DNA of 64,000 nucleotides, from assembly GCA_964387845.1 (NCBI GenBank), contig CAYLXA010000013.1, positions 25,521-89,520 of the forward strand, in the 5' to 3' direction. The DNA is from an uncultured bacterium. Lineage in GTDB: Bacteria; Omnitrophota; Omnitrophia; Omnitrophales; Abzuiibacteriaceae. The stretch's first letter is position 1; the number at the start of each line of letters is the position of its first letter. Under the pieces are notes generated by a model. It ran no database searches. It was not told where the DNA came from and saw nothing but the letters and a program-made list of their open reading frames with translations. Position numbers and translations under genes: made by a program. Shown one piece after another: positions 17,408-64,000 of this stretch.

Positions 17408-17411
17408 CTAA

Positions 17412-17488: not shown

Positions 17489-17490
17489 CC

Positions 17491-20241: not shown

Positions 20242-20269
20242 ATCTGTAAGAAGTGTCAACACTGTGCTA
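20242..20269 (-). promoter_or_regulatory. Near-consensus sigma70 promoter for the nuo operon
   Basis: The minus strand reads TTGACA (20269..20264), a 16-nt spacer, then TATAAT (20247..20242). This puts it ~20 nt upstream of the nuoA start. Confidence 0.5.
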
Positions 20270-20370
20270 CTTATATAACGTTGGGAACATTTTCAAAGAA
20301 AGCGCAGGGTAGTCATGACTTCAACTAATTTAACGATTGAAAAATAAAAGGGAAGTCATGGCAACAACAC

Positions 20371-23300: not shown

Positions 23301-26300
23301 CGATATAGATATTGTTGTTGTGCTGAATCGCCGCAAAATCTGTGTAGTTGAAGTAAGCTGCGCAATAAGCCGGCGCCGCTTCTTTTTTGTAAACGATGTT
23401 GTTTAAGAACTGAATGTTGGGGGCGCTTGACGGACTTGCCTCTGCGCCGATGAGGACCACGTAACTATCGTATCCGTTGCCGATCAGTAAATTGTTATAG
23501 AATCGGCCGTTTTCTTGGACGTTGTCCAAAGACAAAGCTTTTCCGATCGATGCGTCTACCACGTTATTAAAGAATTCAATGTTGGAACCTATGCCGCCGA
23601 CCGTGCCGTTGATGTAATTGTTGTAATAGCGGCTGTTACGGTTGAGTTGAAGTGCGCCCGAAAGGCCGGCGTTGATCGTTATGTTGTTCGAAAATAAATT
23701 GCCAGCAGCATGTCCATAAATCACATGGCCGTATCGGTCATAGGTGTATTGCCAAGGATCTGATATTTCTGAAAGGCATATCTCAACAGGATAGCTGGAG
23801 TCGTCGGCAATGACGAGAGGCCCGATATTTTCAAATCGGTTGTTCTGATAAGTAAAATAGTTATCAATTGTCGGGTGGGGCGTTAGATCCGCGATACCCA
23901 TGCTATTAAGGCTTCTGAGAGTACTGTCATAAACTTCGATATATTGACCGGGATTTCCGCCGGGCAGCGGGTTCATTTTAATACCTTCCTCGCCATGCTG
24001 AATGGTTAAGCCGATGAAACGGATGTAGGATGCTGACGTGTAAAACCGGTTTTGTCCGGGAAAGTAAAACGAATGTTCTGACGGGTTGGTCCCGGACGGG
24101 AGGCGAATGTATAAGCGCCCACTTGTGCAATCGATAAAATAAGCGTTGAATGAAGTATTGGAATTCGGGATTGTTAATACATCAAGCATATCTTGATGAC
24201 GGAGCATGCGGCTGAAGGGCCGTTCAAGATCCATGATTATGCCTCTCGGATAATTTCCTTCACCGCCGTTTGCGTTAGGATCGTATGTTCCAAGCGATGT
24301 ATCAGTCCACCAGATTGAATAATTGCCCGCGTTTTCTGAAAATGTCCAGTTTGAAGGAATGCTTGCTCCCGAATCAATGACCGGTGTTTCGCCGGGATAG
24401 TTTCGAATGGTTACCCACTGATTCGGCGCTCCGCCGCGATCCATAAGGTTGTAGGATCCAAACGGCTGTGTTCCACCGCGGATGTAAACCGTATCTCCAG
24501 GATTGAGCTGATCAAACGTTGCGCTTACATTGCAAATCGGCTGGGCAAGAGATCCGGGGCCGCTGTTGCTGCACGCCGGATTATTTGCATCAACTACGTA
24601 GTAATTTCCCGCGCAATCGTTTGAACAATCAAAATGGCTTTCACGCCGGAGATCACAGTAACCGTCACCGCAAGTCCCGGCGCAATCCTGCGAGCAGGTT
24701 TGAACCGTCTCTGGCGCTTCACAAATACCGTCGCCGCAAAGTGCGGTAGTGGTAACCGAAAAAGACGCTTCAATGGTGTGGGTTGTTTGTACGTTGTTAA
24801 ACGTATAACTGGAAATAGCGCCTTGCGAAACGCTGTCGACGAGCACATCCGTAATTTCGTAACCGATATTGGGCGTGATTGTAAATATTTGATCGCTGCC
24901 TTCGGCAACATTGACCGTGCCGTTCGGTACAATGTAGCCGCCGTTATTTGCTGTTGCATTAATTGAATGTGAAGGGCCTTCTACTTGGCAGATTGAGCTG
25001 CAGCCGTCGCCGCTTGCCGTATTGCCGTCGTCGCAAGTTTCATTGCCGACGACTAAACCGTCACCGCAAATTGGATTACATTCTGGGTTGCTGCCGGGAT
25101 TTACAGTGTCAACGGAACAGGTCCAACCGGCCTCGTAATAAATCGTGTCTTGCATAATGGCCGAAATGTTTCCAACACTATCAATCAATCTGGCAAACAC
25201 TGTCCGTTCACCGCTCGGCCCGCTGGCAAGTTTCCAGCGCATGACGTTTTCATACGGAGTCGGGTCACTCCAAATTGTTCCGTTATTAGAAAATATTACG
25301 GATGTGATCGAGGATCCGCCTGAGTCAGAAACCGTTAAGTAGATATGCGAGTCTAACGAATAAGTAACCGCCGCGTCATTCTCAATCAGTATTGTTCCGC
25401 TCGGCGGTTCAAGATCAACGACAAACTGAACCACATTGGAATATTCGGTTGGGTTCCGCCCAAGTTGAAACGGCGGCACGGGCGGTGATTCCCATCCGCG
25501 CACGCGGGCGTGATAAGTATTTGAGGTGCTCAACGAAACAGGAACAAACGTATCGTTTGACCAAAGAGTCGTAACATTGGAAGCAAAATTAGGGTCGGTT
25601 GAAATTTTGATTTCGTAAGCATTTGAGCCCAGCGACGGAGTCCAAGCGAGATTAAAATCGCCGTCATTGGGCGTTGCGGGTTGCGCCAGAACAGGCTGGA
25701 CGGCGGCTTGTGACGCAAAAGCCCCAATGTGGCAGCCTGTGCTTCCGGTTGGCGTGACGGAAACATTAAAACCGTTTTCGATGACATTAAGGCACATGCC
25801 CGAGTGGCTTGCAGGACTGCCCGGTTGAAGATTGAAATCAGCGTTTGCGAGATCCACAAATTGCGGATCTGCTTGAATATTTGAATCTGCCAGATTGAAG
25901 TTATTAAAATCAGCTACTGAGTAAAGCCCGCTCACCACGATTTGCCCGTTTCCGCCGCCATCTTTTAAAGCTCTAATAACCGAAGTTTCGTGGGCCGGAT
26001 TAGACGAGTAAATCAAATTATTTCGAATGTCATCGCCGTATCCGCCAAAATTCGTATCAACATATTCCAGCGGATCGTAATGAAGCATTAGTAGCTCAGC
26101 ATTGAAAGTATTGCCGAAAGAGACTGGTGAAACATAATCATGGTTGGCATCCATCAAAATATTGTTCCAGATGCGGACATTATATATAGCATTCAGGGCG
26201 TCCGGAGGATTCCAGTTGAAATTGGCAGTATAAATTCCACGCGGCCCCGGACTGTGAATGGTATTGTTAAAGATGTATACGTCCTGAATTAAATTTTGGT

Positions 26301-29300
26301 CAGCAACATTTGCAACGAGCGTGATTCCGGTAGAATCGTTAAATCCGTCATAAATAACGTTATTGTAAATGTAAAGTCGTTCTGTTTTTCCGGGCCCGAT
26401 TTGAATTGCGCCGCCGCGGTGATTTGATTCTGAAGGGAATTGGTTGGTTCCAAAAAACGTGTTATTTCGAATAATCGTATTTTGTGAAATGCCGGGATTT
26501 CCGTCAATTGAACCGATGCCGAATGAAGTGTGAAACCGATTTCGGAATGTATTATTCTCTATTAAAACATTTTCAGAATTCCGGAAACCGACAGTTCCAT
26601 GTCCGCAATCACCGAACCAGCTGTTTTTAATAGTCGTATTTCTTGCATCATCGCCAACAATTCCGTCAACGCCGCCGCCGTTCATCAGAAGCAAGCTCGG
26701 GCTTGCCGTGCAATTTAAATTTAAATTGTCAATCTCTACTCCATCGGTATCGAGAACTTTAATTCCGTTTGCCCAAGGTTCCGCGTAACTTTGCTCCGGC
26801 GGCCAGCGGTGGCCAATGCCGATATCATCATTTCCGGTGAATGAAGTGACTGATATATTTTTGAGCTTGACGCCATTTGACCGTTGAATGCCAAGCACGT
26901 AGGGTGCATACAATCTTCCGCCTGCGGTATCGATATGCCCAATGAAATTTAATGAATCAAAAGTAATGTCGTTTGCCAAATAAGTTGTCAGCATATATAT
27001 GCCGATATTGCTGCCTTGAGCCGTCATACTGCTGCCGTGTAAATTCACGGTTTCATTCGGATAGCCGCGAATCGTAATCGGGTTTGCCTCAGTTCCCGAA
27101 CTTCGGATGACAATAAAATTGTTTGCATCAATGTAGGGGAGGAAGTAATCGCCGCCCCGAATGTAAACCGTATCGCCGATATTTAATTTTTCATAAGGAG
27201 ACGTTTCACGAAGCGCTCTCGGCGTGCACCACGGCGTATTGGGATCGAGTGCTTGAGTTCTTGAGTAACTGTCCGAACAGTCACAATTATTTTGATCAAT
27301 GAAAAGCATATTAGTTCCGTTCGCAAGCTCTTGCGGGTCGGAACTGCCGACCGTGCATCCGCCTTCGGATTGGCTTGTATATTCAAATGCGCCGGGCGCG
27401 CAACTTCCGCTTTCAGGACGCGGATTTCCGTCAAAATCCACCGCAACTTCCGGAAGACAAGGGACCGAGCCGATCGCAGGGCTGTCCTGCTGTAAATGAA
27501 AATCGCCGATACCAGCGTTTACGAAAAGCGGGTTGCCGTCTACGTTGTCTTCGGCGAATGACAGTGCATTAAATTCGTCGATGGTGTAGTGATAACGCTG
27601 CGTGTTCCGATTGTTGGTGCTTTGGACCGGGTCTTCGGCAGGATTGAGTTCTTTGACCCAGTTATTTTCAAACACATTTCCATAGCCATTTTGGCCTTCA
27701 AAATCCCAGCCGCCCAGCCGGATTTCGCCGTGAATTTGTTCTCCTTCGCCCGTATAAGTTTGAATTCCGTAGAAAATATTATTTTTGATTTGATTATTAT
27801 TGGCCCAATTATTTTGGCCGAAAACGCCGTTATTGCCGACGCTCATGTTGGCGTAGCCTGTGTTGTAAACCGTGTTGTGAAAGATTTTATTGTTGTTGGC
27901 TTCAAAGAATCCGGTGCCGGGCCCGTTTTGATCCTGAGAATTGGCAATCGAAATTCCGTTTCCATTTAATGCGCCGTTGTAAATCACATTGTTATAAATC
28001 AGGTTGTCACTGGCCCCCAAAATCTGAATGCTGTTTGCGCGAAGCGTGGTCTCCGAAGGAATTGAATTGTAAGTATGAAACGTGTTATTCCGGATGATGT
28101 TATCGTGAGAACCGACACCAACGGCGATATTGGTATGGAGCGTATTTGAAAAATCATTATTTTGCACCAAAACGTCATGCGTATTAAAACGAAGCACAAG
28201 TAGAATGTGGCCGCAGTCACGGAATGTATTGTTTTCGATTAAGCCGCCCGAGACATAATCCATCATGATGCCATCGCCGGAATAGCGGTTGTCCGGGTTA
28301 ATTTGATCGTTAACTTGCATGCATCGGAAAAAACTATTCTTCACTGTGATGTTGCTTGCATTATCAAATTCGATGCCGTTGCCATAAGGTGCATTAGGAG
28401 CGCGATCGTCGTAGCCGATGTCATCGGTGCCTTTGAAGTCAACAACCGAAATGCTGTCAAATACAATATCGCTGCTTCCGCTGACAACCTCAATGACTCG
28501 CGGGCCATACAATTTTCCGTTTGGGTTACCAACATCCACGTTGCCGACAAAATGAAGATTTTCAAATGTGATGAAATGAACGTCATTCAGAACAAATGTG
28601 CGTTCGAACGCTGTGTGCGCACCGCGGATGACTGCCGTTTCGCCGGGATATGAAGTGAATGTAATTCGGTTGCTATCGCTTGTGCCCGATGAATTGATTC
28701 TGACTGTGGTATCGACGATCGGATATTCACCGCCGCGAATATAAACGGTGTCGCCTGCGTTTAATTTGTGATTGGGCCGGTTTTCATGAAAGCCAAGAGG
28801 CGAACACCAGGGTGTATAAGGATCGCGTGCCGCATACCGGTCTCCAGCGTCGCTGCAGTTGCAATTATTTTTATCCACAAAGAGAACATTGGCGCCGTTG
28901 GCAAGCCCTTGCGGGTCAGAGCTTCCGGCTATGCAGCCTCCGAGCTCTGATGGGTGATTGTTGGGATCGTTGGGATTAAATCCGCCTGCAAATTCTTCAC
29001 CGTCTGAGTAGCCGTCACCGTCTGTGTCCGGATTATTAGGATCCGTGCCGTTTTGAAATTCCTGCAGATTGATAAATTGATCATTGTCCGGGTCATCCGT
29101 GCCGTTTTGATTGAGATTGCCGAAGTGCAGCATTTCCCAAACGTCCGGCAAACCGTCTTGATCTGTATCTGAAGTGTCGTTGTAAACATACTCGAATGGA
29201 CCGATGTCGCAGGCAGCGCCTTGCGGCCGGATATGGTTGTCAAAATCAAAATCTACTTCAGGAACACAGATTCCGGCATCCACTGCCGAGCTTTGCTCGG

Positions 29301-31257
29301 TTGGGTGAAAATCGTGATTCTGCGGATCGACAAATAAAGGCACGGTTCCGAGATTATCTACGATTGTTCCAGTCCCAAAAAGGTTATCCAGATTTTGAAG
29401 TGTGTAATCAAAGTGTATATACGGAGGATTGGAAGTTCCAAAATTTCGCGTAGACATCACAAATCCGCCCGGGTTGTCAGTCACCAGCAAATTATTTTTG
29501 ATTTCATTTCCGTAACCCTGATTGGGTTCGAAGCCATAAATATCAAAGAAAATAGGACGGTTGAGATAATACGCATATGTCTGAGAGTAAGGTCCGTCGG
29601 CAGCTCCGCCGGTTTTAAGCTGGATGATATTGTTTTGCACTTTGTTGTCATGCACATAATTGGTATTTGGCAACAGGACGTCATTTATATCCGGACGATT
29701 ATTAAACTCAATCGCTTTTACCATAGAGTTGTGCGTGGTTGCTGTCGGGTCGTCCATATAAATTAAATTATGATAAACCTGGTTCCGGTCGGAATTCGAA
29801 TCGCCGTTTCCGATAAAAGTAATGCCGTGCAAGGAACGCCGCCTCGGCTCGTCAGCGTCGTAGTAAATGATGTTGTTGTGGATTTGGCTGTCGGAAGCCG
29901 AGAGCATTTCAATGGCATGGCCGCCTTGGTTTCCCGTGGTCGGGTACACATTCCAGTTGTAAATCAAATTATTTTTAATAGTCATTTGACTGCCGCCGAA
30001 TGCAAAGCAGGTATGAAGTTCGTTATTACAGGAATTATTTTCAACCGTTATGTTGTCAGACCATCTAACCGTTAAGCTGATATGTCCGCAATTTCCAAAA
30101 GTACTATTTTTTACGCTGCCACCGGATACGCGATTAAATTGAATCCCGTCGCCCGAGAAGCGAAAATCTTCGGTCGGGCGCTCAGAGTATTCAGAGCAGC
30201 TGACAGATGCATTCTCGATTTTAATATTAGAAACGTCATCAAATTGTATTGCACTCCCCCAAGTTTCATAGTCTTCCCCGGTTTTCCGCCACCTAAAGCC
30301 GTAACCGATGTCATTGAGGCTTTGAAAATTAAGAACGCTTGTATCTAAAATTTGAATATCTTGGGCTGGATTTCCAACAGTCCCGCTAATTCTCAACGGA
30401 TTCGGCATGTAAAGTCTGCCTTCCGGCGTATCTTCATAGGCAATAAAATTAAGCCCCTTTAACGTAATGTAGCTGGCGTTATTCAAGATCAGAATCCACG
30501 AATAATTATAAGAGCCGCCGCGTATGGTAACCGGCTCATAACCACTCGGTTCAGTTTGAGAGGGATATGCTTGGATCGTGATCCGCTGCGCAGGCCCGGC
30601 GCCGGACGTATTAACGCTCGCATTATGTTCCGTATAGTCGCCGCGGCGAATGAAGACTGTATCGCCCGGATTCAATTTATGGTTTGGCCTGTATTCGGTT
30701 AACCCGCGCAAACTACACCACGGTGTTGCGGGATTTAAGGCTTCCGGGCGTTCACGGTTATCGCGGCAATTACAATTGCTCTGATCGACAAACAGAACAT
30801 TCAGCCCATTTGCCAAATTCAAAGGATCTGTATTGTTGTCACACTGACGAAGTGGAATACTGCTTGCGTTGGTCGGGCTACTGCCTAATCTGATCTCGTC
30901 GTCATCATTGACGCCATCTCCGTCTGTGTCATATCCGATGTTTCCGTTGCCCACAGTTGGATTGGTATTAAAAGCAACTTCCCGAAAGTTGGGCACTCCG
31001 TCTCTATCCGGATCGTCGTATTGATCATAACTTGTGATATCGCCAAAGTATTGAATTTCCCAATCATCTGAAAGGCCATCAAAATCAGTGTCAATTTCAC
31101 CGGCGGCAATTTGGGGAAGGGGAATGCCCATGAAGACGAGCGTGAAAATAATGATCAAAGAAACAAAATCAGAAAGAAATTTGGAAACAACTTTCTTGAA
31201 CTGCCGGGATTTTATTTTTTTTTTGTGTGATTTATCTGATTCGGAGCTTCGTCCCAT
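20371..31257 (-). CDS. Giant secreted multidomain surface protein (3628 aa). It has TSP3-like Ca-binding repeats, four pectate-lyase-type beta-helix modules, FN3/PKD-like domains, InlB-B-type repeats, a Myxococcus-type Cys-rich repeat and a Dictyostelium/EGF-like Cys-repeat region.
   Basis: A single uninterrupted ORF with an N-terminal signal/anchor ([18 protein letters not shown]). It has DxDxDGxxDxxE motifs and repeated NxxxN/right-handed beta-helix signatures. The module-start motif LANGxNVLF(V/I)DxxNC(N/D)C...TPWC...GDTVYIRGG occurs three times. A CGDGxxxxxExCDDGNxxSGDGCSxxC unit is present. About 20 CxxGxxxxxCDDGNxCTxDxC-like units lie between ~22435 and ~21130. Confidence 0.85.
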   Translation of the reverse strand: [3628 protein letters not shown]

Positions 31258-31485
31258 TTTAGCTGTTCTGCTTTCTTCTTAACTGATAAAAGTTTATCAT
31301 CTTATTAAAGCATTTACAAAAGATTACAAAACTATTTTAAAAATAATTAGTATATCCGGATATTAAGGAAATATAAGCGGTTTTGAATTTTGAATTAGCC
31401 GTCGTGGGCGCTAAAAATTAGACGACAGGGTACTATTCCATAGGCTTGAAAATGCCAAATTCTATGCTAAATTTTGCCTTCTAAA

Positions 31486-32737: not shown

Positions 32738-32830
32738 TGTCATTGCGAGATACGTTATTTGGTATCGAAGCAATCTCGGTACTTAGATTGCTTCGGCACT
32801 GCACAACGCGCCTCGCAATGACGACTTGAC
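32738..32830. repeat. ~90-bp palindromic intergenic repeat (family G), copy 1
   Basis: gtcattgcgag ... agattgcttcggc ... aacgcgcctcgcaatgac. The outer arms are inverted repeats of each other. About 40 nt are near-identical to the copy at 33586..33625. Confidence 0.7.
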
Positions 32831-33527: not shown

Positions 33528-33625
33528 TCGTTATTGCGAGGCGCCTTAATCAGCGTCGCGGCAATCCCTGTTCTGAGATTGCTTCGGCGTTAATCAACGC
33601 GCCTCGCAATGACAGTTCAATTTAT
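33528..33625. repeat. ~95-bp palindromic intergenic repeat (family G), copy 2
   Basis: ttattgcgaggcgcc ... agattgcttcggcgttaatcaacgcgcctcgcaatgac. It has the same architecture as copy 1 and sits between convergent genes. Confidence 0.7.
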
Positions 33626-36983: not shown

Positions 36984-36989
36984 TTTAGT

Positions 36990-37028: not shown

Positions 37029-37548
37029 CAAGTTCCAAAAAATCTTTCTTCGTAGAATCCCAGCCGAATAATTTCGCACCGCGGGCTTTACCCCTGACTC
37101 GAACGGAGTCAGGGACTGCGTCGGCCGCGAAGCGATCGGCTTCGCTGTCCGCGCTGTCTTTTGTAACGTCGACTACTAAATAATTCACATCAGGCATCAG
37201 AGGGCTGCCATCAAACGTCGCTTGTTTTTTATCTTCGTCCGAAAAATAAGAACCGACATCAACGTGAGAATGATAAATAATCCGGATGACCTCGTCTTTT
37301 GTACGGGCGACTTTTTCGATATTCAAAAGGTCTTTGGGATCTAAAAAGTAGGCAGTTTTGCTTGTTCGCGGAAACTTTTGAGGGTCGCTTGCGTGCATTT
37401 CATCCTGCAAATTCCGGCAGGGAAACGAGTTTTCAAGACTTGCGGGAATCCCTTTTTTGCCGGTAATGATACCGCAACATTCGGAAGGATAGGCTGAAAT
37501 AGCATGGCGATAAACCGCGTCTATGATTCGTTTTTTGATTGTAACCAT
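37012..37548 (-). CDS. mec: JAMM/MPN+ metalloprotease (Mec-like CysO-cysteine peptidase)
   Basis: The JAMM motif IIYHSHVDVGSYFSDED (HxHx7Sx2D) is present, along with a conserved Glu and a Cys-Cys near the N-terminus. Genomic context is next to moeZ and cysM. Confidence 0.75.
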   Translation of the reverse strand: MVTIKKRIIDAVYRHAISAYPSECCGIITGKKGIPASLENSFPCRNLQDEMHASDPQKFPRTSKTAYFLDPKDLLNIEKVARTKDEVIRIIYHSHVDVGSYFSDEDKKQATFDGSPLMPDVNYLVVDVTKDSADSEADRFAADAVPDSVRVRGKARGAKLFGWDSTKKDFLELAWQLT

Positions 37549-37585
37549 AGTTGTAAGTGGTAAGCGCTAAGTGTTAAGTAAAAGG
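37549..37585. repeat. Family T repeat upstream-flanking the four-helix-bundle gene
   Basis: accatagttgtaagtggtaagcgctaagtgttaagt. It is in inverted orientation relative to the copy at 37975..38012. Confidence 0.6.
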
Positions 37586-37935
37586 GATTTTTGAAAACCG
37601 CAAAGCATTCTTCCGACCTCATCACAATTTTCTGAAATTAGTTCAAACTTTTCATGACTAATATAAGCCAAATCAAAGCCTAATAACAGATGATATTTAG
37701 TTTCTTCTAGAGAGCTATCAGCTAAGTTTAGAAAATGCAGAAATTCTTTCCTGCTTTTTCTCTTTTGTCCTTCTACGATGTTTGTAGAAATGGAAGCGGC
37801 AGCTCTGCGTAATTGACTAGATAATCCGAATTTTTCGTCTGACGGGAAGCTTTTAGTAATTTTATAAACTTCCAAAACCAATCGATGAGCTTTTTGCCAG
37901 ACTTTTAAATCACGAAATGTACTAATTTTATTCAT
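37567..37935 (-). CDS. Four-helix-bundle protein (the family often found in 23S rRNA intervening sequences)
   Basis: The 122-aa protein reads MNKISTFRDLKVWQKAHRLVLEVYKITKSFPSDEKFGLSSQLRRAAASISTNIVEG, the characteristic signature of that family. A strong RBS AGGAGGG is present. Inverted family T repeats flank the gene. Confidence 0.8.
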   Translation of the reverse strand: MNKISTFRDLKVWQKAHRLVLEVYKITKSFPSDEKFGLSSQLRRAAASISTNIVEGQKRKSRKEFLHFLNLADSSLEETKYHLLLGFDLAYISHEKFELISENCDEVGRMLCGFQKSLLLNT

Positions 37936-37974
37936 AAACCCTCCTTGAATTAATATGATTATTTAATTCGTGGA

Positions 37975-38012
37975 GGGAAAAACTTATCACTTACAACTTA
38001 CCACTTAAAACT
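37975..38012. repeat. Family T repeat in inverted orientation, downstream flank of the four-helix-bundle gene
   Basis: acttatcacttacaacttaccacttaaaacttag, which is the reverse complement of the TAAGT-heptad unit. Confidence 0.6.
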
Positions 38013-39184
38013 TAGTACCTTGCCATGCTCGGATCAACGCGCTCAGCCCACACATCGATTCCGCCGGTCAGGTTTTTCAACTTCTTAAACCCGCGCGATT
38101 GAAGGATTTGCAGCGCTTTCATGCTGCGCCCTCCGTGATGGCATTGCAGCACAATCTCTTTTGAGGGATCAAGCTCTCCGGTTCGATTTTGAATTTCACC
38201 CAGCGGAATGAGTTTTGAACCTTCAATGTGGCAAATGTCGTATTCAAACGGCTCGCGAACATCAATCAAAACCACTTCTTTCCTGTCGAGTCTCTTTTTG
38301 AGTTCTTCAACCGTGATTTCAATCGAATCGCCTTTTCCTTTTGCTGCATCTTCACCGACAGATTCCTGGCCGATCCGCAGGCCGCAAAATTGTTCGTAAT
38401 CGATTAATTTTTTAATCGTCGGATTTTTTCCGCAGATGGGGCACTCCGGATCTTTTCTTAGTTTCAATTCGTGAAAGCGCATCTTGAGCGCGTTAAATGT
38501 GAGAAGCCTTCCGATGAGCGGAGTGCCTTGGCCCGTGATGAGTTTTACGGTTTCGGTGGCTTGAATCACACCGACAACGCCGGGAAGAATTCCCAAAACT
38601 CCGCCTTCTGCGCAGCTCGGGACCATTCCGGGCGGCGGCGGTTCGGGATAAAGGCAGCGATAACAGGGCCCGCGTGTTGAATCAAAAACGGAAGCCTGGC
38701 CTTCAAATCGGAAAATACTGCCGTAAGCGTTTGGTTTGCCGAGCAAAACGCAGGCATCGTTTACGAGATAACGCGTCGGAAAATTATCGGTTCCGTCTGC
38801 GACGATGTCGTATTGTTTGATGATTTCCATCGCGTTCGAGGAATCCAGTTTGGTTTCGTGCTCGATCACATTGACGTTCGGATTAATCTCGCGAAGCCGA
38901 GCTGCAGCCGTACCGACTTTGGATTTTCCGATATCTTTGGTGCCGAACAAAACCTGGCGCTGCAAATTGGTGTGATCGACGACGTCAAAATCAATCAGCC
39001 CGAGCGTTCCGATGCCGGCGGCTGCGAGATATAAGGAAAGCGGGGAGCCAAGGCCGCCCGTGCCGACACACAGGACTTTTGCGGCTTTTAGCTTTTTTTG
39101 CCCTTCGACGCCGATTTCAGGCAATATCAGATGGCGTGAGTAGCGCTTCAGCTCTTCAGTTGATAGATTTACTTCTTTTCCCAT
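38012..39184 (-). CDS. moeZ: Sulfur-carrier-protein adenylyltransferase/sulfurtransferase (MoeZ/MoeB-type E1 with a C-terminal rhodanese domain)
   Basis: It has a ThiF/MoeB Rossmann fold (VLCVGTGGLGSP), a CxxC pair and a rhodanese domain with the active-site motif CHHGGRS. Confidence 0.85.
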   Translation of the reverse strand: MGKEVNLSTEELKRYSRHLILPEIGVEGQKKLKAAKVLCVGTGGLGSPLSLYLAAAGIGTLGLIDFDVVDHTNLQRQVLFGTKDIGKSKVGTAAARLREINPNVNVIEHETKLDSSNAMEIIKQYDIVADGTDNFPTRYLVNDACVLLGKPNAYGSIFRFEGQASVFDSTRGPCYRCLYPEPPPPGMVPSCAEGGVLGILPGVVGVIQATETVKLITGQGTPLIGRLLTFNALKMRFHELKLRKDPECPICGKNPTIKKLIDYEQFCGLRIGQESVGEDAAKGKGDSIEITVEELKKRLDRKEVVLIDVREPFEYDICHIEGSKLIPLGEIQNRTGELDPSKEIVLQCHHGGRSMKALQILQSRGFKKLKNLTGGIDVWAERVDPSMARY

Positions 39185-42024: not shown

Positions 42025-43428
<1,404 letters not shown>

Positions 43429-44361
43429 ATGAGCAGCAGAATTTATAACTCCATCGAAGAAGAAATTGCGGCGCTGAAAAAAGAGCGAAACGCGATTATT
43501 CTGGCGCACAATTATCAAGTCGGCGAAATCCAGGACATCGCGGATTTCACGGGTGATTCGCTTAAACTTTCTCAGCAAGCGGCCAAAACGGATGCGGATG
43601 TTATTGTTTTTTGCGGCGTTCATTTTATGGCTGAGACTGCGAGTATTTTATCGCCCAACAAAAAAGTTCTGATCCCTGATATGGACGCCGGATGTTCACT
43701 TTCCGGAATGATTAAGCCCGAAGACGTTCGCAAATGGAAAGAAGCACATCCCAATGGTGTGGTTGTGACTTATGTCAATACCTCCGCGCAAGTCAAAGCC
43801 GAGTCTGACTATTGCTGCACGTCCTCCAATGCTGTGAAAGTGGTTGAAAGCATTCCGCGCGATAAAGAAATTCTGTTCGTTCCTGATTTTTATTTGGGAT
43901 CTTACGTTAAAAAGCAAACCGGCCGCACCAACATGACGGTTTGGAACGGTTATTGCCACGTTCACGTGATGATCAGCTCCCAAAAAATCGATGAAATGCG
44001 CCACGAACATCCGAAGGCGGAAGTTTTGATGCATCCGGAATGCAGCTGCATGACGAAAGTGATGGATAAAGCGGATCAAGTTTTATCAACGGAAGGCATG
44101 GTGAAGCATGTCCGTGATTCCAAGAAAAACGAATTTGTGATTGCGACTGAAACGGGCGTTATTCACAAAATGGAAAAAGAAAATCCCGGCAAAAAGTTTT
44201 ATCCGGCGGTTCAGCAGGCCGTTTGCGGTTACATGAAGCTCAACACGCTTGAGAAAATTGTACGCACACTTGAGAAATTGCAGTACGAAGTAAAAGTCCC
44301 GGAAGATATTGCGCGCCGAGCGCGTATTCCGATCGAAAGGATGCTTCAAATAGTTCCATAA
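43429..44361 (+). CDS. nadA: Quinolinate synthase
   Basis: The 310-aa NadA fold has three repeats. It starts directly at the thiC stop. Confidence 0.9.
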   Translation: MSSRIYNSIEEEIAALKKERNAIILAHNYQVGEIQDIADFTGDSLKLSQQAAKTDADVIVFCGVHFMAETASILSPNKKVLIPDMDAGCSLSGMIKPEDVRKWKEAHPNGVVVTYVNTSAQVKAESDYCCTSSNAVKVVESIPRDKEILFVPDFYLGSYVKKQTGRTNMTVWNGYCHVHVMISSQKIDEMRHEHPKAEVLMHPECSCMTKVMDKADQVLSTEGMVKHVRDSKKNEFVIATETGVIHKMEKENPGKKFYPAVQQAVCGYMKLNTLEKIVRTLEKLQYEVKVPEDIARRARIPIERMLQIVP

Positions 44362-44468
44362 ACTTAAATTCAAATATCAAATTTCAAATATCAAAATTTC
44401 GCTTGTTTCGAATTTTAAATTTTTGTGATTTGAATTTGTTTTTAATTTTGAAATTTGGATTTTGATAT
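44362..44468. repeat. AT-rich ~100-bp imperfect-palindrome repeat (family F), copy 1, upstream of ispG
   Basis: caaatatcaaatttcaaatatcaaaatttcgcttgtttcgaattttaaatttttgtgatttgaatttgtttttaattttgaaatttggattttgatatt. It is ~90% identical to the copy at 45535..45640. Confidence 0.7.
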
Positions 44469-45534
44469 TATGAATAAACGACGCAAATCCAGACAAGTTA
44501 CGATCGGCGGTTTAACGCTTGGCGGCAATGCCCCGATCCGAATTCAATCCATGACCACCACGCACACGCGCGATGTGGCCGCAACGGTGAAACAAATCAA
44601 TGAACTTGCTGAAGCCGGCTGCGAAATGGTCCGCGTCGCATGTCCCACGGAAGAAGATGCCAAATCACTTGGCGCTATCAAGAAGCAAATCAAAGTTCCG
44701 CTCATTGCAGATATTCATTTTAATTATAAACTCGCGTTAATTGCGCTTGAAGAAGGTGTTGATAAATTGCGCCTGAACCCGGGCAACATCGGCGGCCGAG
44801 ACCGCGTTGAAGCAGTTGTCGCAAAAGCCAAAGAGCGCAAAGTGCCGATCCGGATCGGCGTCAATGGCGGTTCGCTCGAGAAAGATTTGATGGAAAAATA
44901 TGGGCCGGTTCCGCAAGCGATTGTGGAAAGCGCGCTTCGCCACATCAAAATTTTAGAAGACGTTGATTTTCACGACATCATCGTATCGCTCAAAGCGAGC
45001 GATGTTCCGACGATGATTGAGAGTTACCGTCTGGCGGCCAAAGCATTTGATTATCCGCTTCATTTAGGTGTTACGGAAGCCGGAACATTACTTCGCGGCT
45101 CGGTCTATAACGCGATCGGCGTCGGAAGTTTGCTCTATGACGGTATCGGCGACACCATTCGAATTTCTCTCACGGCGGAATCTGTGGAAGAAGTGAAAGT
45201 TGCGCGTTTTATATTGGAAGCCATCGGCCACCGGAAATTCGGACCGCGCGTGATTGCGTGCCCGAGCTGCGGCCGTGCGGAAGTCGATGTCTTTAAACTC
45301 GCGAATGAAGTCGAAAACCGTGCGATGAAATTGAAAGACCCGATGGTGATTTCCGTTTTAGGCTGTGTCGTCAACGGCCCCGGCGAAGCGCACGAATCTG
45401 ATTTCGGCATCACGGGCGGGAAAGACAAAGGCATGGTTTATATTGATGGTCAGCAGCACAAAACAGTTCCCGAAGAAAAGTTGGTCGATGAACTTTTTAA
45501 CGAAATCGAAAAGAGAAAGAAAAAGCAACCGTAA
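44455..45534 (+). CDS. ispG: 4-hydroxy-3-methylbut-2-en-1-yl diphosphate synthase (MEP pathway)
   Basis: The 359-aa GcpE protein starts QVTIGGLTLGGNAPIRIQSMT and has the C-terminal Cys triad CPSCGR...GCVVNGPGE. Confidence 0.9.
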   Translation: MDFDIMNKRRKSRQVTIGGLTLGGNAPIRIQSMTTTHTRDVAATVKQINELAEAGCEMVRVACPTEEDAKSLGAIKKQIKVPLIADIHFNYKLALIALEEGVDKLRLNPGNIGGRDRVEAVVAKAKERKVPIRIGVNGGSLEKDLMEKYGPVPQAIVESALRHIKILEDVDFHDIIVSLKASDVPTMIESYRLAAKAFDYPLHLGVTEAGTLLRGSVYNAIGVGSLLYDGIGDTIRISLTAESVEEVKVARFILEAIGHRKFGPRVIACPSCGRAEVDVFKLANEVENRAMKLKDPMVISVLGCVVNGPGEAHESDFGITGGKDKGMVYIDGQQHKTVPEEKLVDELFNEIEKRKKKQP

Positions 45535-45640
45535 TATCAAAATTCAAATTTCAAATATCAAAATTTCGTTCGTTTCGAATTTTAAATTTTATAATTTGAA
45601 TTTGTTTTGAATTTTGATACTTGAGTTTTGAATTTATAAA
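45535..45640. repeat. AT-rich ~100-bp imperfect-palindrome repeat (family F), copy 2, downstream of ispG
   Basis: tatcaaaattcaaatttcaaatatcaaaatttcgttcgtttcgaattttaaattttataatttgaatttgttttgaattttgatacttgagttttgaattt. Confidence 0.7.
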
Positions 45641-46728
45641 TGAATTCAATCTTCCATAACCCTGAACTCTCCGATATCGCAGAAAAAGTCCGCAGCCAGA
45701 CGCGTCTTTCGTTCGAGGACGGTGTCCGGCTCTTCAAATCCAATGATCTTCCCTTGATTGGAAGATTGGCCCACGAAGTCAGAACGCGTCTTCACGGCAA
45801 AAAAGTTTTCTATTCCATAAACCTGCACATGAATCACACAAATGTTTGTACGGCCCGCTGTTTGTTTTGCGCGTTTGCGCGCAGGCCCCATGAAGAAGGC
45901 GGCTACACTTTTTCAGTCGAACAAATCAAAGATGCGGTCCGAAAAGCTGTTGAGCGCTACCACATTAATGAAGTTCATATTGTGGGCGGCTTAAATCCCG
46001 ATTTGGATTTCAATTATTACCTCGATCTTTTCCGGATGATTCACACGAATTGGCCGAATTTATTTATCAAAGCACTCACAGCGGTTGAGATCGATGACCT
46101 CGCCGTTAGGTTCAATATGAGCTGGGAAGATGTTTTGCAGCAACTCAAAGATGCCGGGTTAAGCGGGCTTCCGGGCGGGGGAGCCGAGATTTTCCAGGAA
46201 GAGCGGCGCAAACGGATTTGCGCGGATAAAACCACTTCCAAAAATTGGCTCGAAATTCACCGGATTGCGCACCGCCTCGGGCTTGATTCCAACTGTACGA
46301 TTCTCTACGGACATATTGAATCCATCGAAGACCGCGTGGATCACATTCTACGTTTACGCGCGCTTCAGGACGAAACAAGCGGCTTTAATTCATTCATTCC
46401 GCTCGCGTTTAACGCGGAAAATACGCCGATTGAGAAATTGGGCGAACCGGACGGCTTTACAGATTTAAAAATGTGTGCCATCGCGCGGCTTCTATTTGAT
46501 AATGTTCCGCACATCAAGCTGCACTGGACATCACTCGATTTAAAAATGGCATCCGTCGGCCTTTATTTTGGTGCCGATGATTTGGGCGGAACCAATATTA
46601 ATGAAAAAATCATGCACGATGCCGGTAACGAAACGCCGGTCGATATGACGGAAGAAAAATTTCGCGCGTTCATCGAAAAATCCGGTTTTGAGCCGGTTCT
46701 TGTGGATAGTTCTTATCAAACCGTTTAG
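45640..46728 (+). CDS. Radical SAM enzyme of the MqnE/MqnC/CofG/CofH family. It is probably a futalosine-pathway menaquinone synthase.
   Basis: The 362-aa protein has the CxxxCxFC cluster motif (CTARCLFCAF) and the family's TIM-barrel layout. The assignment within the family is uncertain. Confidence 0.65.
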   Translation: MNSIFHNPELSDIAEKVRSQTRLSFEDGVRLFKSNDLPLIGRLAHEVRTRLHGKKVFYSINLHMNHTNVCTARCLFCAFARRPHEEGGYTFSVEQIKDAVRKAVERYHINEVHIVGGLNPDLDFNYYLDLFRMIHTNWPNLFIKALTAVEIDDLAVRFNMSWEDVLQQLKDAGLSGLPGGGAEIFQEERRKRICADKTTSKNWLEIHRIAHRLGLDSNCTILYGHIESIEDRVDHILRLRALQDETSGFNSFIPLAFNAENTPIEKLGEPDGFTDLKMCAIARLLFDNVPHIKLHWTSLDLKMASVGLYFGADDLGGTNINEKIMHDAGNETPVDMTEEKFRAFIEKSGFEPVLVDSSYQTV

Positions 46729-46800
46729 GGCAAGTTGTAAGTGGTAAGTGATAAGTGTTAAGTTAATCAAATTACTTAGCACTTACAACTTAGCACTTAG
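46729..46800. repeat. Family T (TAAGT-heptad) palindromic element between the two radical SAM genes
   Basis: gttgtaagtggtaagtgataagtgttaagttaatcaaattacttagcacttacaacttagcacttagcac. Confidence 0.65.
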
Positions 46801-46812
46801 CACTGGAAAAAA

Positions 46813-47913
46813 ATGTGGTCTCAAATCGAATCAAAAATTAATTCTGGCGAAAGTCTGACGGAATTCGAAGCCCAGTGGCTTTTGGAGCGCGAGGAAGCTT
46901 CCGATTTAGAGCGTTTGTACTCTCTCGCCGGAAAGGTGAATGATCGGCTCAACGGAAATGTTGTGTCGTTCATCCACAACATGAACGTTAATTACACCAA
47001 TATTTGTGAATATCGCTGCACATTCTGTGAGTTTAAGAAGTCGCCAATCTCGAAAGACGCTTATATCCTCAGCTTTGACGATGTGAAGCACCGTTTGGAG
47101 CATGCCGACGGAAAAATCTCGGAAATTACCTATCAAGGCGGCCTTTCACCGGAAGTGACTTTCCATCAGGCGCTTGATTTGATGCACAAAATTAAAAGCG
47201 CTTATCCGCATATTCATTTTCACGCTTTTTCACCGGAAGAAATTGATTTTTATGCGGATGCAAACGGCCTGTCTTATCGCGAAACGATTCAGGAATGCCA
47301 AAAAGCCGGCATGGATTCGATGTGCGGAACGGCTGCCGAAGTTCTGGATGATGAAATCCGCCGGAAAATTTGCTGGGAGAAAATTTCGAGTGATGAATGG
47401 GTCGAAATTATCAAGACCGGCCACGAGCTCGGCATGAATTCCACAGCGACGATTCTTTTTGGCCATCTCGAAAAACCTGAAAATGTCGCACGTCATTTCA
47501 GACGGCTTCGTGATTTGCAGCGCGAAACGCGCGGGCTCACGGAATTTATCCCGCTTTTATTCATGCCGGACCGCACCAAACTCGGACGCGTTGTGGATCC
47601 GGAATTAGACAGAATTGAATATGCTTTCAAAATGATGGCTACGGCACGGCTTTATTTTATGAACGATATCCGCAATGTTCAAGTCAGCTGGGTCAAAATG
47701 GGATGGGAAAATGCGTTACTCGCTTTAAATCGCGGCGCCAACGACATGGGCGGAACACTTTACTACGAAAATATTACGCGTGAAGCCGGCGGCACGAACG
47801 GCGAATACACACCGGTTTCCAAATTTGTCTCCGAACTTTCCCGCATCGGCAAAATTCCCCAAGAGCGCGATACAACTTACTCCTTTCAAGAATCTTCTGC
47901 AATTACAAAGTAA
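46813..47913 (+). CDS. Second radical SAM enzyme of the MqnE/MqnC/CofG/CofH family, a paralog of the upstream gene
   Basis: The 366-aa protein has the cluster motif CEYRCTFCEF and the same domain layout as its neighbour. Confidence 0.65.
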   Translation: MWSQIESKINSGESLTEFEAQWLLEREEASDLERLYSLAGKVNDRLNGNVVSFIHNMNVNYTNICEYRCTFCEFKKSPISKDAYILSFDDVKHRLEHADGKISEITYQGGLSPEVTFHQALDLMHKIKSAYPHIHFHAFSPEEIDFYADANGLSYRETIQECQKAGMDSMCGTAAEVLDDEIRRKICWEKISSDEWVEIIKTGHELGMNSTATILFGHLEKPENVARHFRRLRDLQRETRGLTEFIPLLFMPDRTKLGRVVDPELDRIEYAFKMMATARLYFMNDIRNVQVSWVKMGWENALLALNRGANDMGGTLYYENITREAGGTNGEYTPVSKFVSELSRIGKIPQERDTTYSFQESSAITK

Positions 47914-47916
47914 AAT

Positions 47917-47950
47917 GGAGCTAGATTTAACCCAGCTCCATTTTTTAAAC
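47917..47950 (+). terminator. Putative intrinsic terminator after the radical SAM pair
   Basis: aatggagctagatttaacccagctccatttttt has an 8-9-bp stem followed by a T-run. Confidence 0.5.
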
Positions 47951-50744: not shown

Positions 50745-50897
50745 CCTGAGTCGGCTCGGCTAATTATTCATTTATAATCGTAAACAATTTATGGAAACCC
50801 TTGCGCTACTTAGCATAAGAATCAGGACAATTTTTAATGAAAGCGCAAGGGTGGTCATGATTTGATGGACATACAATCGGGCCAATTATAAGAAATC

Positions 50898-52706
50898 ATG
50901 ACCAAAGCACTATTACAAATTAAAGATATTCATAAAAGTTACGGGCCCACCGTGATTTTAGACGGCGCAAGCGCCACGCTTTCAACCGACCAGAAGATCG
51001 GCATGATCGGCCGGAATGGGGCGGGCAAGTCCACGCTCTGCAAAATTATCACGGGCCACGAGCAGGCCGACAGCGGTGAAATATCAAAAAGTGCCGACCT
51101 GAAACTCAGTTATCTGGAACAGCAGGACCCTTACAAGGAAGCAGAGACGGTTCTCGAGTTTTTAATGCGCTACACCGGCAAAGAAGAATGGCAATGCGGT
51201 GAAATGGCGCACCGGTTTCAAATCTCAAACGAGATGCTTGCTCATCCGATCAGCGCGCTTGCGGGCGGATACAGAACGCGCGTCAAGCTTGCGGCCATGC
51301 TTCTTAACGATCCAAACTTTTTAATTTTGGATGAACCGACGAACTATCTCGATCTCAGCACGCTGATTCTGCTCGAAAATTTCCTTCAGGATTTCCGAGG
51401 CGGATTTTTAATTGTGTCGCACGACCGCGAGTTTTTAAAGCGCACGTGTGAACATACACTCGAGGTTGAAGCCGGCGACCTGACGCTCTATCCGGGTTCC
51501 ATCGAGGAATATTTCACATTTAAAGAAGAACAGCGTGTCCAAAAAACAGCGCACAACAAATCTATTGAGAAAAAAAGAGAGCAGCTTCAGGCTTTCGTCG
51601 ATCGTTTCCGCGCGAAAGCCTCTACGGCGTCGCGGGCAAAATCCAAGCAAAAACAGATGGAAAAACTGAAAACCATCGAAATTGAACATCCGATGTCGAA
51701 TGTCAAAATCCGTGTGCCGCGCGTGGAGCGTAAATCAGGAATTGCGCTATTTTGCGATGACCTTGCGATCGGATATCCCGAGAAACTGGTGGCCAACAAA
51801 ATTCACATGGATGTTGACCGGGGCGCGCATGTGGCGGTTTTGGGCGATAACGGGCAGGGAAAAACTACTTTTTTGAGGACAATTGCGAATGATTTGGCAC
51901 TGAAAGGCGGAAAATTCCGATGGGGAACCGGGCTCGATATCGGCTATTACGCTCAGCACGTATTTGGCACGCTGAACGGCGAGGAAGAGATTTTTAATTA
52001 CCTGCAGCGCCACGCAACTGACGGCGTTTTGACTCAGGATATTCTCGACATGGCAGGGAGTTTCTTATTTAAAGGAAACGACGTCCGCAAACAAATCAAG
52101 GTCCTGAGCGGCGGCGAACGCGCGCGGCTTGTGTTGGCCGGACTTTTACTCACGAAGTGCCATGTATTGCTTTTGGACGAACCGACCAACCATCTGGATT
52201 TTGAAACTGTCGAAGCTTTAGGGAGAGCGCTTCGGGAATTTGCGGGCACGCTATTCTTTATCAGTCACGACCGGACATTTGTGAATTTGGTCGCGACCGA
52301 GATTATTGAAGTCAAAAATGGCTGCGTAAAAAAATATCCCGGCACATATGAAGATTATGTTTATCATTTGGAACAGGAAGCCCAAGGCATCCAGCAGAAA
52401 GAAAATAAATTACACGAACTTCATGTGAAAGAGCATAGCAAAAAATCGGAAGAGAAAAAAGAAACTGCTCCCAAAAATAATCCGGAAATTGCAAAACAAA
52501 AAGACAAGATCAAGAAATCAGAAAACCGGCTGAAGCAATTTACGGTTGAGAAGGAAAAGATTCTCGAAGAAATGCGTGCCAATCCGTTTCATTTTTCTAA
52601 AGATAGAAATAAGCGCTTAAAAGATTTAGAGGTTTTGATCGAAAATGAAGAAACAGATTGGCTGAAGTTTCAATCTGAACTCGAAGCTTTTAAATCTAGC
52701 GGATAG
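50898..52706 (+). CDS. ABC-F family ATPase (Uup-like; tandem ABC domains plus a C-terminal coiled coil)
   Basis: The 602-aa protein has two Walker A motifs (GRNGAGKST and GDNGQGKTT), two LSGGxR signatures, no TM domain and a Lys/Glu-rich C-terminal coiled coil. Confidence 0.85.
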   Translation: MTKALLQIKDIHKSYGPTVILDGASATLSTDQKIGMIGRNGAGKSTLCKIITGHEQADSGEISKSADLKLSYLEQQDPYKEAETVLEFLMRYTGKEEWQCGEMAHRFQISNEMLAHPISALAGGYRTRVKLAAMLLNDPNFLILDEPTNYLDLSTLILLENFLQDFRGGFLIVSHDREFLKRTCEHTLEVEAGDLTLYPGSIEEYFTFKEEQRVQKTAHNKSIEKKREQLQAFVDRFRAKASTASRAKSKQKQMEKLKTIEIEHPMSNVKIRVPRVERKSGIALFCDDLAIGYPEKLVANKIHMDVDRGAHVAVLGDNGQGKTTFLRTIANDLALKGGKFRWGTGLDIGYYAQHVFGTLNGEEEIFNYLQRHATDGVLTQDILDMAGSFLFKGNDVRKQIKVLSGGERARLVLAGLLLTKCHVLLLDEPTNHLDFETVEALGRALREFAGTLFFISHDRTFVNLVATEIIEVKNGCVKKYPGTYEDYVYHLEQEAQGIQQKENKLHELHVKEHSKKSEEKKETAPKNNPEIAKQKDKIKKSENRLKQFTVEKEKILEEMRANPFHFSKDRNKRLKDLEVLIENEETDWLKFQSELEAFKSSG

Positions 52707-52786
52707 CGTTTAGGGGATAGAGCCGAATAACGTTTTGGGATTTCTATACGCTACCCGCTCTACGCTAAACGCTATTTTTTATGTTC
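52704..52786. repeat. Family R palindromic element between convergent ABC-F and queF. Possible terminator for ABC-F.
   Basis: tagcggatagcgtttagggg...ctatacgctacccgctctacgctaaacgctatttttt. The inverted arms atagcgtttag / ctaaacgctat are followed by a T6 run. The element overlaps the last codons of queF. Confidence 0.45.
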
Positions 52787-54091: not shown

Positions 54092-54093
54092 CA

Positions 54094-54172
54094 GCGTATA
54101 GTGTTTAGCGGATAGCATATAGGAATGATCAGAAAAATGGTTTTTTCTATCCACTCTACGCTATCCGCTAGC
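54094..54172. repeat. Family R palindromic element upstream of the pilin operon
   Basis: agcgtatagtgtttagcggatagcatatagg...ctatccactctacgctatccgcta has 11-bp perfect outer arms, tagcggatagc / gctatccgcta. Confidence 0.55.
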
Positions 54173-54240
54173 CAAAATTTGAACATTTCTCCCGCCCATG
54201 TTAACTTTTGATTAATAGAAGTCGTACTTAATGAATGATT

Positions 54241-63437: not shown

Positions 63438-64000
<563 letters not shown>

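Follow-up and report, generated by a model that had tools for sequence, protein, structure and literature searches.

Two copies of one AT-rich palindrome bracket the isoprenoid gene ispG in a 64,000-nt stretch of DNA from an uncultured Omnitrophota bacterium (contig CAYLXA010000013.1 of GenBank assembly GCA_964387845.1; the whole stretch is referred to here as the window). The question raised by this locus is what such a pair, which we call F, is and what it does to the gene between its copies. An earlier note, made from the sequence alone, had described these repeats as AT-rich, about 100 bp long, closely similar, and foldable as long imperfect hairpins, and all of this is borne out below. 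The upstream copy (F-up) separates the nadA stop codon (44359-44361) from the ispG ATG (44470), and the downstream copy (F-down) separates the ispG stop codon (45532-45534) from the mqnE ATG (45640); the coordinates of all features are collected in Table 1. A TTG at 44455 was considered as the ispG start and rejected in favor of the ATG at 44470, which gives an N terminus (MNKRRKSRQV) matching that of the orthologs. In our best explanation, which we regard as probable, F is a hairpin element without an open reading frame (ORF) whose arms are built of heptamers, of the type known from the cyanobacterial short tandemly repeated repetitive (STRR) elements and resembling rRNA intervening sequences (IVSs), and it is co-transcribed within an operon that tolerates or uses it.

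The two copies are homologous, which confirms that they form a real repeat pair. Their mean column identity is 88% in a MAFFT alignment, and blastn gives 85% identity over 106 nt; they share the core tttcaaatatcaaaatttcgNtNgtttcgaattttaaattt, agree exactly over runs of up to 25 nt, and lie 1167 nt apart as direct repeats. Both spacers have a G+C content of 17%, compared to a window average of 46%, and contain few distinct 7-mers, as would be expected if their likeness had arisen by chance from intergenic DNA of low complexity and high A+T content. However, the local alignment score of F-up against F-down was 70, which exceeds every value obtained from 1000 dinucleotide-preserving shuffles of F (17.1 +/- 3.2, maximum of 33) and from 1000 shuffles in which F was permuted as 7-nt blocks (22.7 +/- 4.3, maximum of 41), and F reached best scores of just 28 to 39 against six other AT-rich heptamer hairpins. 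The identity is not confined to the repeats but continues through the nonrepetitive center of the element, and the window contains exactly two occurrences of the 20-mer core, versus 0.02 expected. The shuffle controls rule out the chance explanation, to which we assign practically no probability.

In each F copy, a small central hairpin is set between two arrays in opposite orientation, one made of the degenerate 7-nt unit AAWWTCA and the other of its complement. The arms are 26 nt long, are 88% complementary, and form a 26-bp imperfect stem, the 5' side of which spans 44373-44398 in F-up and 45540-45565 in F-down. Autocorrelation at lag 7 was 0.56 and 0.57 for the two copies, an excess matched by none of 2000 shuffles. 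The plus-strand RNA of each copy is predicted to fold into one long imperfect hairpin, at -25.9 kcal/mol (z = -4.66) for F-up and -26.1 kcal/mol (z = -5.02) for F-down, and none of 200 shuffles folded as well as either copy. Folds of the reverse strand were weaker (-13.5 and -20.8 kcal/mol, respectively), and F folded weakly as single-stranded DNA (-13 to -17 kcal/mol, z of about -2 to -3). When folded within 250 nt of context, the F-up hairpin was unchanged. The consensus fold comprises 33 pairs, across which the copies differ by two compensatory double changes and four one-sided changes that keep the pair, with none that breaks one; these differences are supportive without being decisive, as they come from two sequences and a re-ordering of units could explain part of them. 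The start codons that follow the 3' arrays, at a distance of 0 to 4 nt, lack a Shine-Dalgarno sequence.

No sigma-70-like promoter was found on the plus strand of either F copy, with site counts at or below those of shuffled sequences, and no terminator-like site was called in either spacer, the stems being 17% G+C and devoid of the usual tail. No target-site duplication could be discerned at F-up (TAA/ACTTAAA...GATATT/ATG) or at F-down (TAA/TATCAAA...TTTATAA/ATG), both of which have inverted termini, and F itself contains no ORF. Between 44300 and 46900, the only Rfam 15 match at an E value of 1 or less was a chance match to mir-155 (E = 0.72; 20.8 bits versus a gathering score of 56), located on the TAAGT hairpin described below.

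Homologs of IspG assign the organism to Candidatus Omnitrophota. We compared the locus with six relatives, whose IspG proteins are 95% (L003), 87% (L005, L006, L128, and L129), and 79% (L130) identical to that of the window; L003 lies on a 525-kb contig, and L129, at 1.4 kb, covers nothing beyond ispG and its two flanks. The order thiC-nadA-ispG-mqnE-mqnC is kept in all relatives that cover the row (L003, L005, L006, L128, and L130). The ispG gene is single-copy and syntenic in 7 of 7 genomes, and no rearranged form of it was seen in these assembled sequences. At the nadA/ispG junction, the genes abut in L005 and L128 (ATGA) and in L006 (TAAATG), and L003 carries a 103-nt GTCATTGCGAG palindrome. 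At ispG/mqnE, a different palindrome is present in each of L003, L005, L006, and L129, making four unrelated sequences; L128 has a short unstructured gap there, and L130 has a 55-nt gap with a compact G+C hairpin. The thiC/nadA junction is empty in the window and filled in L003 and L128, and more distant relatives have no spacer at nadA/ispG, thiC/nadA, and mqnE/mqnC. The F sequence was not found in any of the six relatives. Because junctions are empty or otherwise filled in relatives, the tight abutment of stop and start codons appears to be the ancestral state, and the hairpins appear to be insertions. As the relatives' junctions are either empty or occupied by unrelated palindromes, F itself is best regarded as a recent, lineage-specific insertion and not as a regulator of ispG. 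Judging from these sequence comparisons, junction hairpins seem to turn over within the time of about 5% IspG change. Fragments of palindromes also appear to have been absorbed into coding ends: in L006, the coding sequence of thiC runs at its 3' end through an arm of the GTCATCCTGA type (9000-9067), and in L003 the called mqnE start takes in a CTCGCAATGAC remnant (11142-11170). Gene starts and ends near hairpin elements are likely to be mis-called.

The F sequence is rare. Its 20-mer core had a single match in 185,579 species genomes, a chance match in a plain, apparently coding Aquimarina stretch; since no true match was found, the source species lies outside those genomes or F differs there. 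A metagenome scan with the pattern (AAWWTCA)x4 gave at least 120 loci (L008-L127), which showed the pattern to be insufficiently specific, and no full-length F homolog was among the matches listed. A blastn search of plasmids with F gave no match, although the low-complexity filter could mask one. The two F copies that we know lie next to each other in the 64-kb window, and the second is probably a local copy of the first. The metagenome scan also revealed (AAWWTCA)n arrays lying in frame within long ORFs in at least 47 loci (for instance, L008, L115, L014, and L013), where the encoded peptides include KFQISNFKFQ, KIKNQKSKIK, and IISNIKYQKSK. Judged by eye, the sequences on either side of the arrays resemble motifs of leucyl-tRNA synthetase (for which L008 and L115 have the array at one and the same place), EPSP synthase, and MiaA. 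All of these in-ORF arrays are in the sense orientation, as expected, because the complementary unit has TGA in every frame.

F is not special to ispG, because the next junction holds a heptamer hairpin as well and about two-thirds of the long co-directional spacers hold a hairpin. Across six lineage loci, strong hairpins occupy 25 of about 38 co-directional spacers of at least 45 nt and 2 of 12 divergent junctions, a distribution that is typical of elements like the repetitive extragenic palindromic (REP) sequences. Structural outliers across the window are mostly intergenic spacers. Arrays of a second unit, TAAGT, occur at five sites in the window, and two of these are full ORF-less hairpins (17411-17493 and 46729-46812) that have an exact 29-mer in common. 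Further heptamer-periodic hairpins are found at 52707-52771 and 54092-54180; a lag-7 signal at 51676-51745 was discarded, being intragenic and no repeat array. A nonperiodic palindrome family, GTCATTGCGAG...GAAGCAATCT...AGATTGCTTC...CTCGCAATGAC, is present at 32739-32822 and 33530-33613. This family and its relatives (GTCATCCTGAGG... and GTCATCCCCGC...) fill operon junctions in the lineage, with sites in L003 (9898-10000 and 12252-12350), L005 (11066-11183), and L128 (3775-3872). Nothing relevant on GTCATTGCGAG palindromes or on Omnitrophota hairpins was found in the literature searched.

One TAAGT element of the window contains a gene of the PF05635 family. On the sense strand, its inverted arms form a duplex of about 35 bp that encloses the entire gene (z = -6.2); the 5' arm opens within the stop codon of thiF, and the 3' arm reaches to the ATG of the JAB gene. 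When the arms of this cassette are joined, the ORF-less TAAGT hairpins can be aligned with them in register. The closest solved relatives of the encoded protein are 2GSC and 2RLD, two uncharacterized five-chain entries. In relatives, the slot between the JAB and thiF genes is occupied by a methyltransferase gene (L003), is empty (L005), or holds 538 nt of noncoding DNA (L006).

The combination of a PF05635 gene with inverted heptamer arms recurs in six other metagenome loci (L135, L139, L146, L121, L047, and L024; Table 1). Three of them, L135, L139, and L146, all lie within operons and have flank duplexes with z values of -4 to -8. A hidden Markov model search of the metagenome loci with AAWWTCA arrays yielded five PF05635-like ORFs (L121, L047, L024, L116, and L019), two of which, in L121 and L047, are surrounded by F-like units; L121 also has an ORF-less hairpin with related arms. 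Inverted heptamer arms thus accompany 7 of the 9 distinct PF05635 cases from the metagenomes or the window. A tblastn search of plasmids gave 27 records, mostly from Nostoc, Calothrix, and Trichormus, which are the classical STRR-bearing cyanobacteria. In all four records whose flanks were examined (L153-L156, from Nostoc punctiforme, N. edaphicum, Trichormus, and Pseudanabaena), heptamer arrays are present on both sides of a gene annotated as encoding a four helix bundle protein. The arrays are clearly inverted in N. punctiforme, N. edaphicum, and Trichormus and mostly direct in Pseudanabaena; the N. edaphicum plasmid, for example, has (GTAGGGA)x8 upstream and (TCCCTAC)x5 downstream of the gene. 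The unit sequence differs from case to case among the PF05635 loci, whose insertion sites include nuoD/nuoH, cas6/cas4, and the junction between two ribonucleotide-reductase subunit genes. No PF05635 relatives of the cassette type came from viral contigs. We found no published description of an association between PF05635 genes and heptamer arrays in the literature searched, which does not prove that the association is unpublished.

These observations invite a speculative proposal, which we advance with considerable reserve: F and the other heptamer hairpins could be the ORF-less offspring of unrecognized mobile "IVS-like cassettes." Such a cassette would consist of a stem of inverted 7-nt arrays around the gene of a PF05635 four-helix-bundle protein, a homolog of the retroelement accessory protein Avd, and the protein would help the cassette in its spread or upkeep. 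The cassettes would invade operons at their stop/start junctions, and also the helices of rRNA and RNase P RNA, in phyla as distant as Omnitrophota, cyanobacteria, and other uncultivated lineages. If true, this would give the cyanobacterial STRR repeats and rRNA IVSs a common origin. F may be tied to the PF05635 cassette by their shared architecture and by the F-like units that surround such genes in other organisms. In our opinion, the PF05635 gene within a heptamer hairpin is the part of this locus most worth pursuing.

With F regarded as an ORF-less heptamer-armed hairpin element, a simple account can be given of how it would live at its site. F would be co-transcribed inside the thiC-to-mqnC operon mRNA and would persist because its long stem brings the stop codon next to the start codon. 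A ribosome terminating at the upstream gene would melt the base of the stem and free the A/U-rich start region, which has no Shine-Dalgarno sequence, such that translational coupling would survive the insertion. Alternatively or additionally, RNase III could cut the F stem as it does in IVSs, splitting the transcript. Slippage of 7-nt units would give rise to the arrays and alter their length, and F would spread by copying. Co-transcription, coupling, and RNase III cutting are thus predictions for F. Members of the heptamer-armed palindromic class settle exactly where one gene's stop codon is followed by the start codon of its neighbor, and STRR-type heptamer hairpins are now found in Omnitrophota.

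Several observations weigh against this explanation. The known copies of F number just two and are neighbors. Neither a target-site duplication nor an identifiable transposase goes with F, and its presumed mobility is deduced from presence and absence in the compared sequences. The genome's 64-kb window yielded no element in which F arms enclose an ORF. Most of the (AAWWTCA)x4 matches listed from the metagenomes are plain tandem arrays without a hairpin partner; because of this, heptamer arrays can evidently occur without a hairpin role. Within 246 nt of context, F-down shifts register, with only the proximal 3' repeats paired, so that one fixed structure is not guaranteed, although such slippage is expected of arms built of repeats. 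Finally, the folding advantage of the sense strand seen for F (-25.9 versus -13.5 kcal/mol and -26.1 versus -20.8 kcal/mol) is not class-wide, as about 10 spacers of the hairpin class favor the sense strand, 6 favor the antisense strand, and 5 show no preference. A sense-strand bias was consequently abandoned as a general argument for an RNA role; it is true of F and fails for the class.

Other explanations give the hairpins a purpose of their own. They could be adaptive operon punctuation, that is, RNA processing or stability hairpins (RNase III sites or barriers to 3' exonucleases) selected for tuning the output of the Fe-S genes, of which the sequence turns over while the function is kept, and not mere tolerated insertions. 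The same junctions are indeed filled in the window and in its 95% relative L003 by unrelated hairpins, about two-thirds of the co-directional spacers of 45 nt or more form strong hairpins, and the differences between F-up and F-down keep pairing. Yet more distant relatives do without any spacer at nadA/ispG, thiC/nadA, and mqnE/mqnC, which makes the hairpin dispensable, and an existing spacer may be no more than a place where the next insertion can land safely; we hold this idea to be rather unlikely. Less probable again, in our estimate, is that the heptamer arrays are sites for an RNA- or DNA-binding protein, for example one resembling S1, Csp, or CsrA, which would regulate how the gene immediately downstream is translated, as proposed for the TAACTGA repeats of Beggiatoaceae (PMC4679880). 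The 3' arrays do end 0 to 4 nt before start codons lacking a Shine-Dalgarno sequence, and the Beggiatoaceae heptamers are placed in the same way (PMC4679880). A single protein is nonetheless a poor fit to units that are unrelated from junction to junction (AAWWTCA, TAAGTNN, and TAGCG-type) and to relatives' palindromes that are not periodic, and the arrays always come as complementary pairs that form a stem instead of single-stranded sites, leaving this proposal only a slender chance.

The remaining alternatives concern how F moves and whether it moves ispG. F is extragenic, palindromic, about 100 nt long, and variably present between relatives, and its sister TAAGT family occupies five sites in 64 kb, all of which would suit a REPIN- or miniature inverted-repeat transposable element (MITE)-type sequence mobilized in trans by a REP-associated tyrosine transposase (RAYT), an IS200/IS605 TnpA, or another insertion sequence, with no link to PF05635. 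REP units have a conserved GT[AG]G head as their hallmark, whereas the F arms are degenerate tandem 7-mers without this head and not a single REP unit. Neither F copy has a target-site duplication, no RAYT partner or high copy number is known for F, and no transposase gene was noted among the genes of the window or of the relatives' loci, the annotation of which is partial. We consider such an origin improbable. Recombination between the two direct copies, 1167 nt apart, had been suggested in the earlier note as a route to deletion or amplification of ispG, with paired terminators as another possible role, and we judge both to be very unlikely. The public assembly of this sample (run SRR15237813) has contigs (L002 and L132), identical to the window, that end inside the F-up arm (44367-44393), as a recombining repeat could produce. 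Contigs of that run also end inside a TAAGT arm at 36989, however, and breaks at both places are more simply seen as repeat or length heterogeneity in the assembly graph; they may reflect further copies or variation in unit number within the population. At 85 to 88% identity, with 25 or fewer identical bases in a row, the copies are a poor substrate for recombination. ispG is single-copy and syntenic in the seven genomes, and its loss would cost the cell an essential step of isoprenoid synthesis (the methylerythritol phosphate pathway). As for termination, F has neither a G+C-rich stem nor a tail, and the sole canonical terminator-like hairpin lies at the end of the gene row (47912-47944). The motif near 31395, also mentioned in the earlier note, turned out to be two 7-nt units (31383-31396) without a partner arm and cannot usefully be counted with the family. 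Of the proposed role as paired regulatory structures, what survives is a possible function as general intercistronic RNA hairpins; a regulation specific to ispG does not.

For ispG, then, the repeats mean little: they are no gene-specific switch and show no sign of endangering the gene. Their wider interest is that hairpins of the STRR kind are present in the barely studied Omnitrophota, where hairpins take up most of the longer gaps between cistrons and are quickly replaced between close relatives. Annotators should expect assembly breaks at heptamer hairpins and misplaced gene starts nearby.

Table 1. Features of the ispG locus, of the sister elements in the window, and of PF05635 loci elsewhere (positions are those of the window unless a locus is named)
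Feature	Position or locus	Strand	Remarks
thiC	42037-43428	+	NCBIfam
nadA	43429-44361	+	NCBIfam
F element, upstream copy	44362-44469	+	108 nt, 17% GC; entire nadA/ispG stop-to-start spacer
F-up 5' arm	44366-44393	+	four exact tandem AAWWTCA units; array runs on with 2 mismatches to 44400
F-up small central hairpin	44407-44434	+	tip of long stem
F-up 3' arm	44444-44469	+	complementary TGAWWTT-type units; last base adjoins ispG ATG
ispG	44470-45534	+	NCBIfam
F-down 5' arm	45533-45560	+	four exact AAWWTCA units; first begins within ispG TAA
F element, downstream copy	45535-45639	+	105 nt, 17% GC; entire ispG/mqnE stop-to-start spacer
F-down small central hairpin	45574-45600	+	
F-down 3' arm	45610-45635	+	4-nt gap to mqnE ATG
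mqnE	45640-46728	+	NCBIfam
TAAGTNN heptamer hairpin	46729-46812	+	fills mqnE/mqnC-like junction; F-like architecture
mqnC/CofH-like radical SAM gene	46813-47913	+	NCBIfam
Canonical terminator-like hairpin	47912-47944		G+C stem between A and T runs; end of gene row
ORF-less TAAGT hairpin	17411-17493	-	nuo operon
ORF-bearing TAAGT element (cassette)	37544-38021	-	fills junction from thiF stop to JAB start
Cassette heptamer arms	37982-38021 and 37544-37583	-	inverted, TAAGTNN units, 400 nt apart
PF05635 gene	37567-37935	-	122 aa, "23S rRNA intervening sequence protein," E = 1.7e-41
Close PF05635 homolog	L135 (relative's 525-kb contig)		AGTCGTA units on flanks
Close PF05635 homolog	L139		AGTACTA units on flanks
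Close PF05635 homolog	L146		between nuoD and nuoH; AAGCTAT units on flanks
PF05635-like ORF	L121		inverted AAATTTC arrays, F-like; flank duplex z = -13
PF05635-like ORF	L047		inverted AAAATTC arrays, F-like; flank duplex z = -10
PF05635-like ORF	L024		AAGTTAT-type arrays on both sides
PF05635-like ORF	L116		marginal
PF05635-like ORF	L019		without arms

The genes around F form a row of five co-directional Fe-S enzyme genes from different pathways (42037-47913, plus strand), and no TPP riboswitch was detected upstream of thiC. Elsewhere in the window, a giant ORF of 3628 aa (20371-31257, minus strand) contains internal repeats spaced at 75 to 78 nt and multiples thereof, and L005 has a comparable giant gene of more than 3692 aa beside its Fe-S row. 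A common intergenic motif of about 60 nt, ...GCGCTACTTA...ATTTT-AA-GAAAGCGCA(A)GGGTRGTCATGA..., occurs at 20262-20322 and 50806-50868, with CCCTTGCGCT/AGCGCAAGGG as an inverted repeat in the latter copy; a small RNA or a regulatory site might account for the motif. An RNA of the nhaA-I riboswitch class lies at 9860-9913 on the minus strand (44.1 bits versus an Rfam gathering score of 37), and a 16S rRNA gene begins at 63438 and leaves the window at 64000, with its first 563 nt inside.

Among known systems, several share traits with F. REP sequences, bacterial interspersed mosaic elements, REPINs, and MITE-like elements such as the Correia elements of Neisseria are short extragenic palindromes that often lie in operons or at the 3' ends of genes and give hairpin transcripts, and their presence varies between relatives, as does that of F; Correia elements can be bound and cut by RNase III (PMC2649163). 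Intrinsic terminators differ from F by their short G+C-rich stem and T run. Integron attC sites were considered and ruled out, as the flanking genes are syntenic housekeeping genes and not cassettes. Intergenic heptamer repeats are another such system. Direct TAACTGA repeats are located just upstream of start codons in Beggiatoaceae and are also found in cyanobacteria and Bacteroidetes (PMC4679880), and Geobacter metallireducens has four- and five-copy tandem heptanucleotide families between and inside genes (PMC2700814). Heptamers are the commonest simple repeats of 5 to 11 nt in prokaryotes, for which slippage has been proposed (Mrazek 2007, as summarized in PMC4679880). Like the F arms, these are tandem 7-nt units often located upstream of starts without a Shine-Dalgarno sequence, but they are mostly direct and have no partner (169 direct repeat sets versus one indirect in the Beggiatoa genome; PMC4679880), whereas F consists of two matched arrays, inverted relative to each other, that make a stem.

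The rRNA IVSs are similar to F and its sister cassette in overall build. The IVS of the Coxiella burnetii 23S rRNA is 428 nt long, has a 28-bp terminal stem with an S23p ORF in the loop, is lower in G+C than the genome, and is cut in its stem by RNase III (PMC4990558). The window elements are likewise imperfect stem-loops, either ORF-less and about 100 nt long, a short form exemplified by the Salmonella IVS, or about 430 to 480 nt long with a PF05635 ORF in the loop. They share with IVSs a G+C content below that of the host, a sporadic presence at fixed positions among relatives, and a terminal stem of about 20 bp or more (26 bp and imperfect in F; about 35 bp in the cassette); stems of about 28 to 35 bp are RNase III substrates in known IVS cases (PMC4990558). 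The cassette at 37544-38021 reproduces the Coxiella layout, but in an mRNA junction: F and the cassette lie in stop/start junctions of mRNAs, whereas IVSs lie in rRNA helices. In addition, the PF05635 ORF is absent from F and present only in the sister element, and PMC4990558 makes no mention of a heptamer periodicity in IVS stems.

The closest match to F itself is the STRR hairpin of filamentous cyanobacteria. STRR sequences consist in most cases of 7-bp units. Hairpins of 7-bp repeats separate the co-transcribed genes hupS and hupL, where roles in transcript stability or translational coupling have been proposed (PMC2670836), and STRR sequences have been reported within an RNase P RNA gene (Vioque 1997, as cited in PMC2858038). 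F differs in its host, which belongs to the Omnitrophota and is not a cyanobacterium, in its AT-rich AAWWTCA units, of which there are about four per arm, and in occupying the whole gap from stop to start, with two copies of its sequence known. In F as in STRRs, tandem 7-nt units are able to pair as a hairpin, and the sequence of the unit varies by site in STRRs as it does in the window hairpins. STRRs stand between co-transcribed genes; F stands between co-directional, syntenic genes, whose row has its one canonical terminator at the end, and may be co-transcribed with them. Finally, heptamer arrays flank four-helix-bundle genes on the plasmids of cyanobacteria, as they flank the PF05635 gene of the window.

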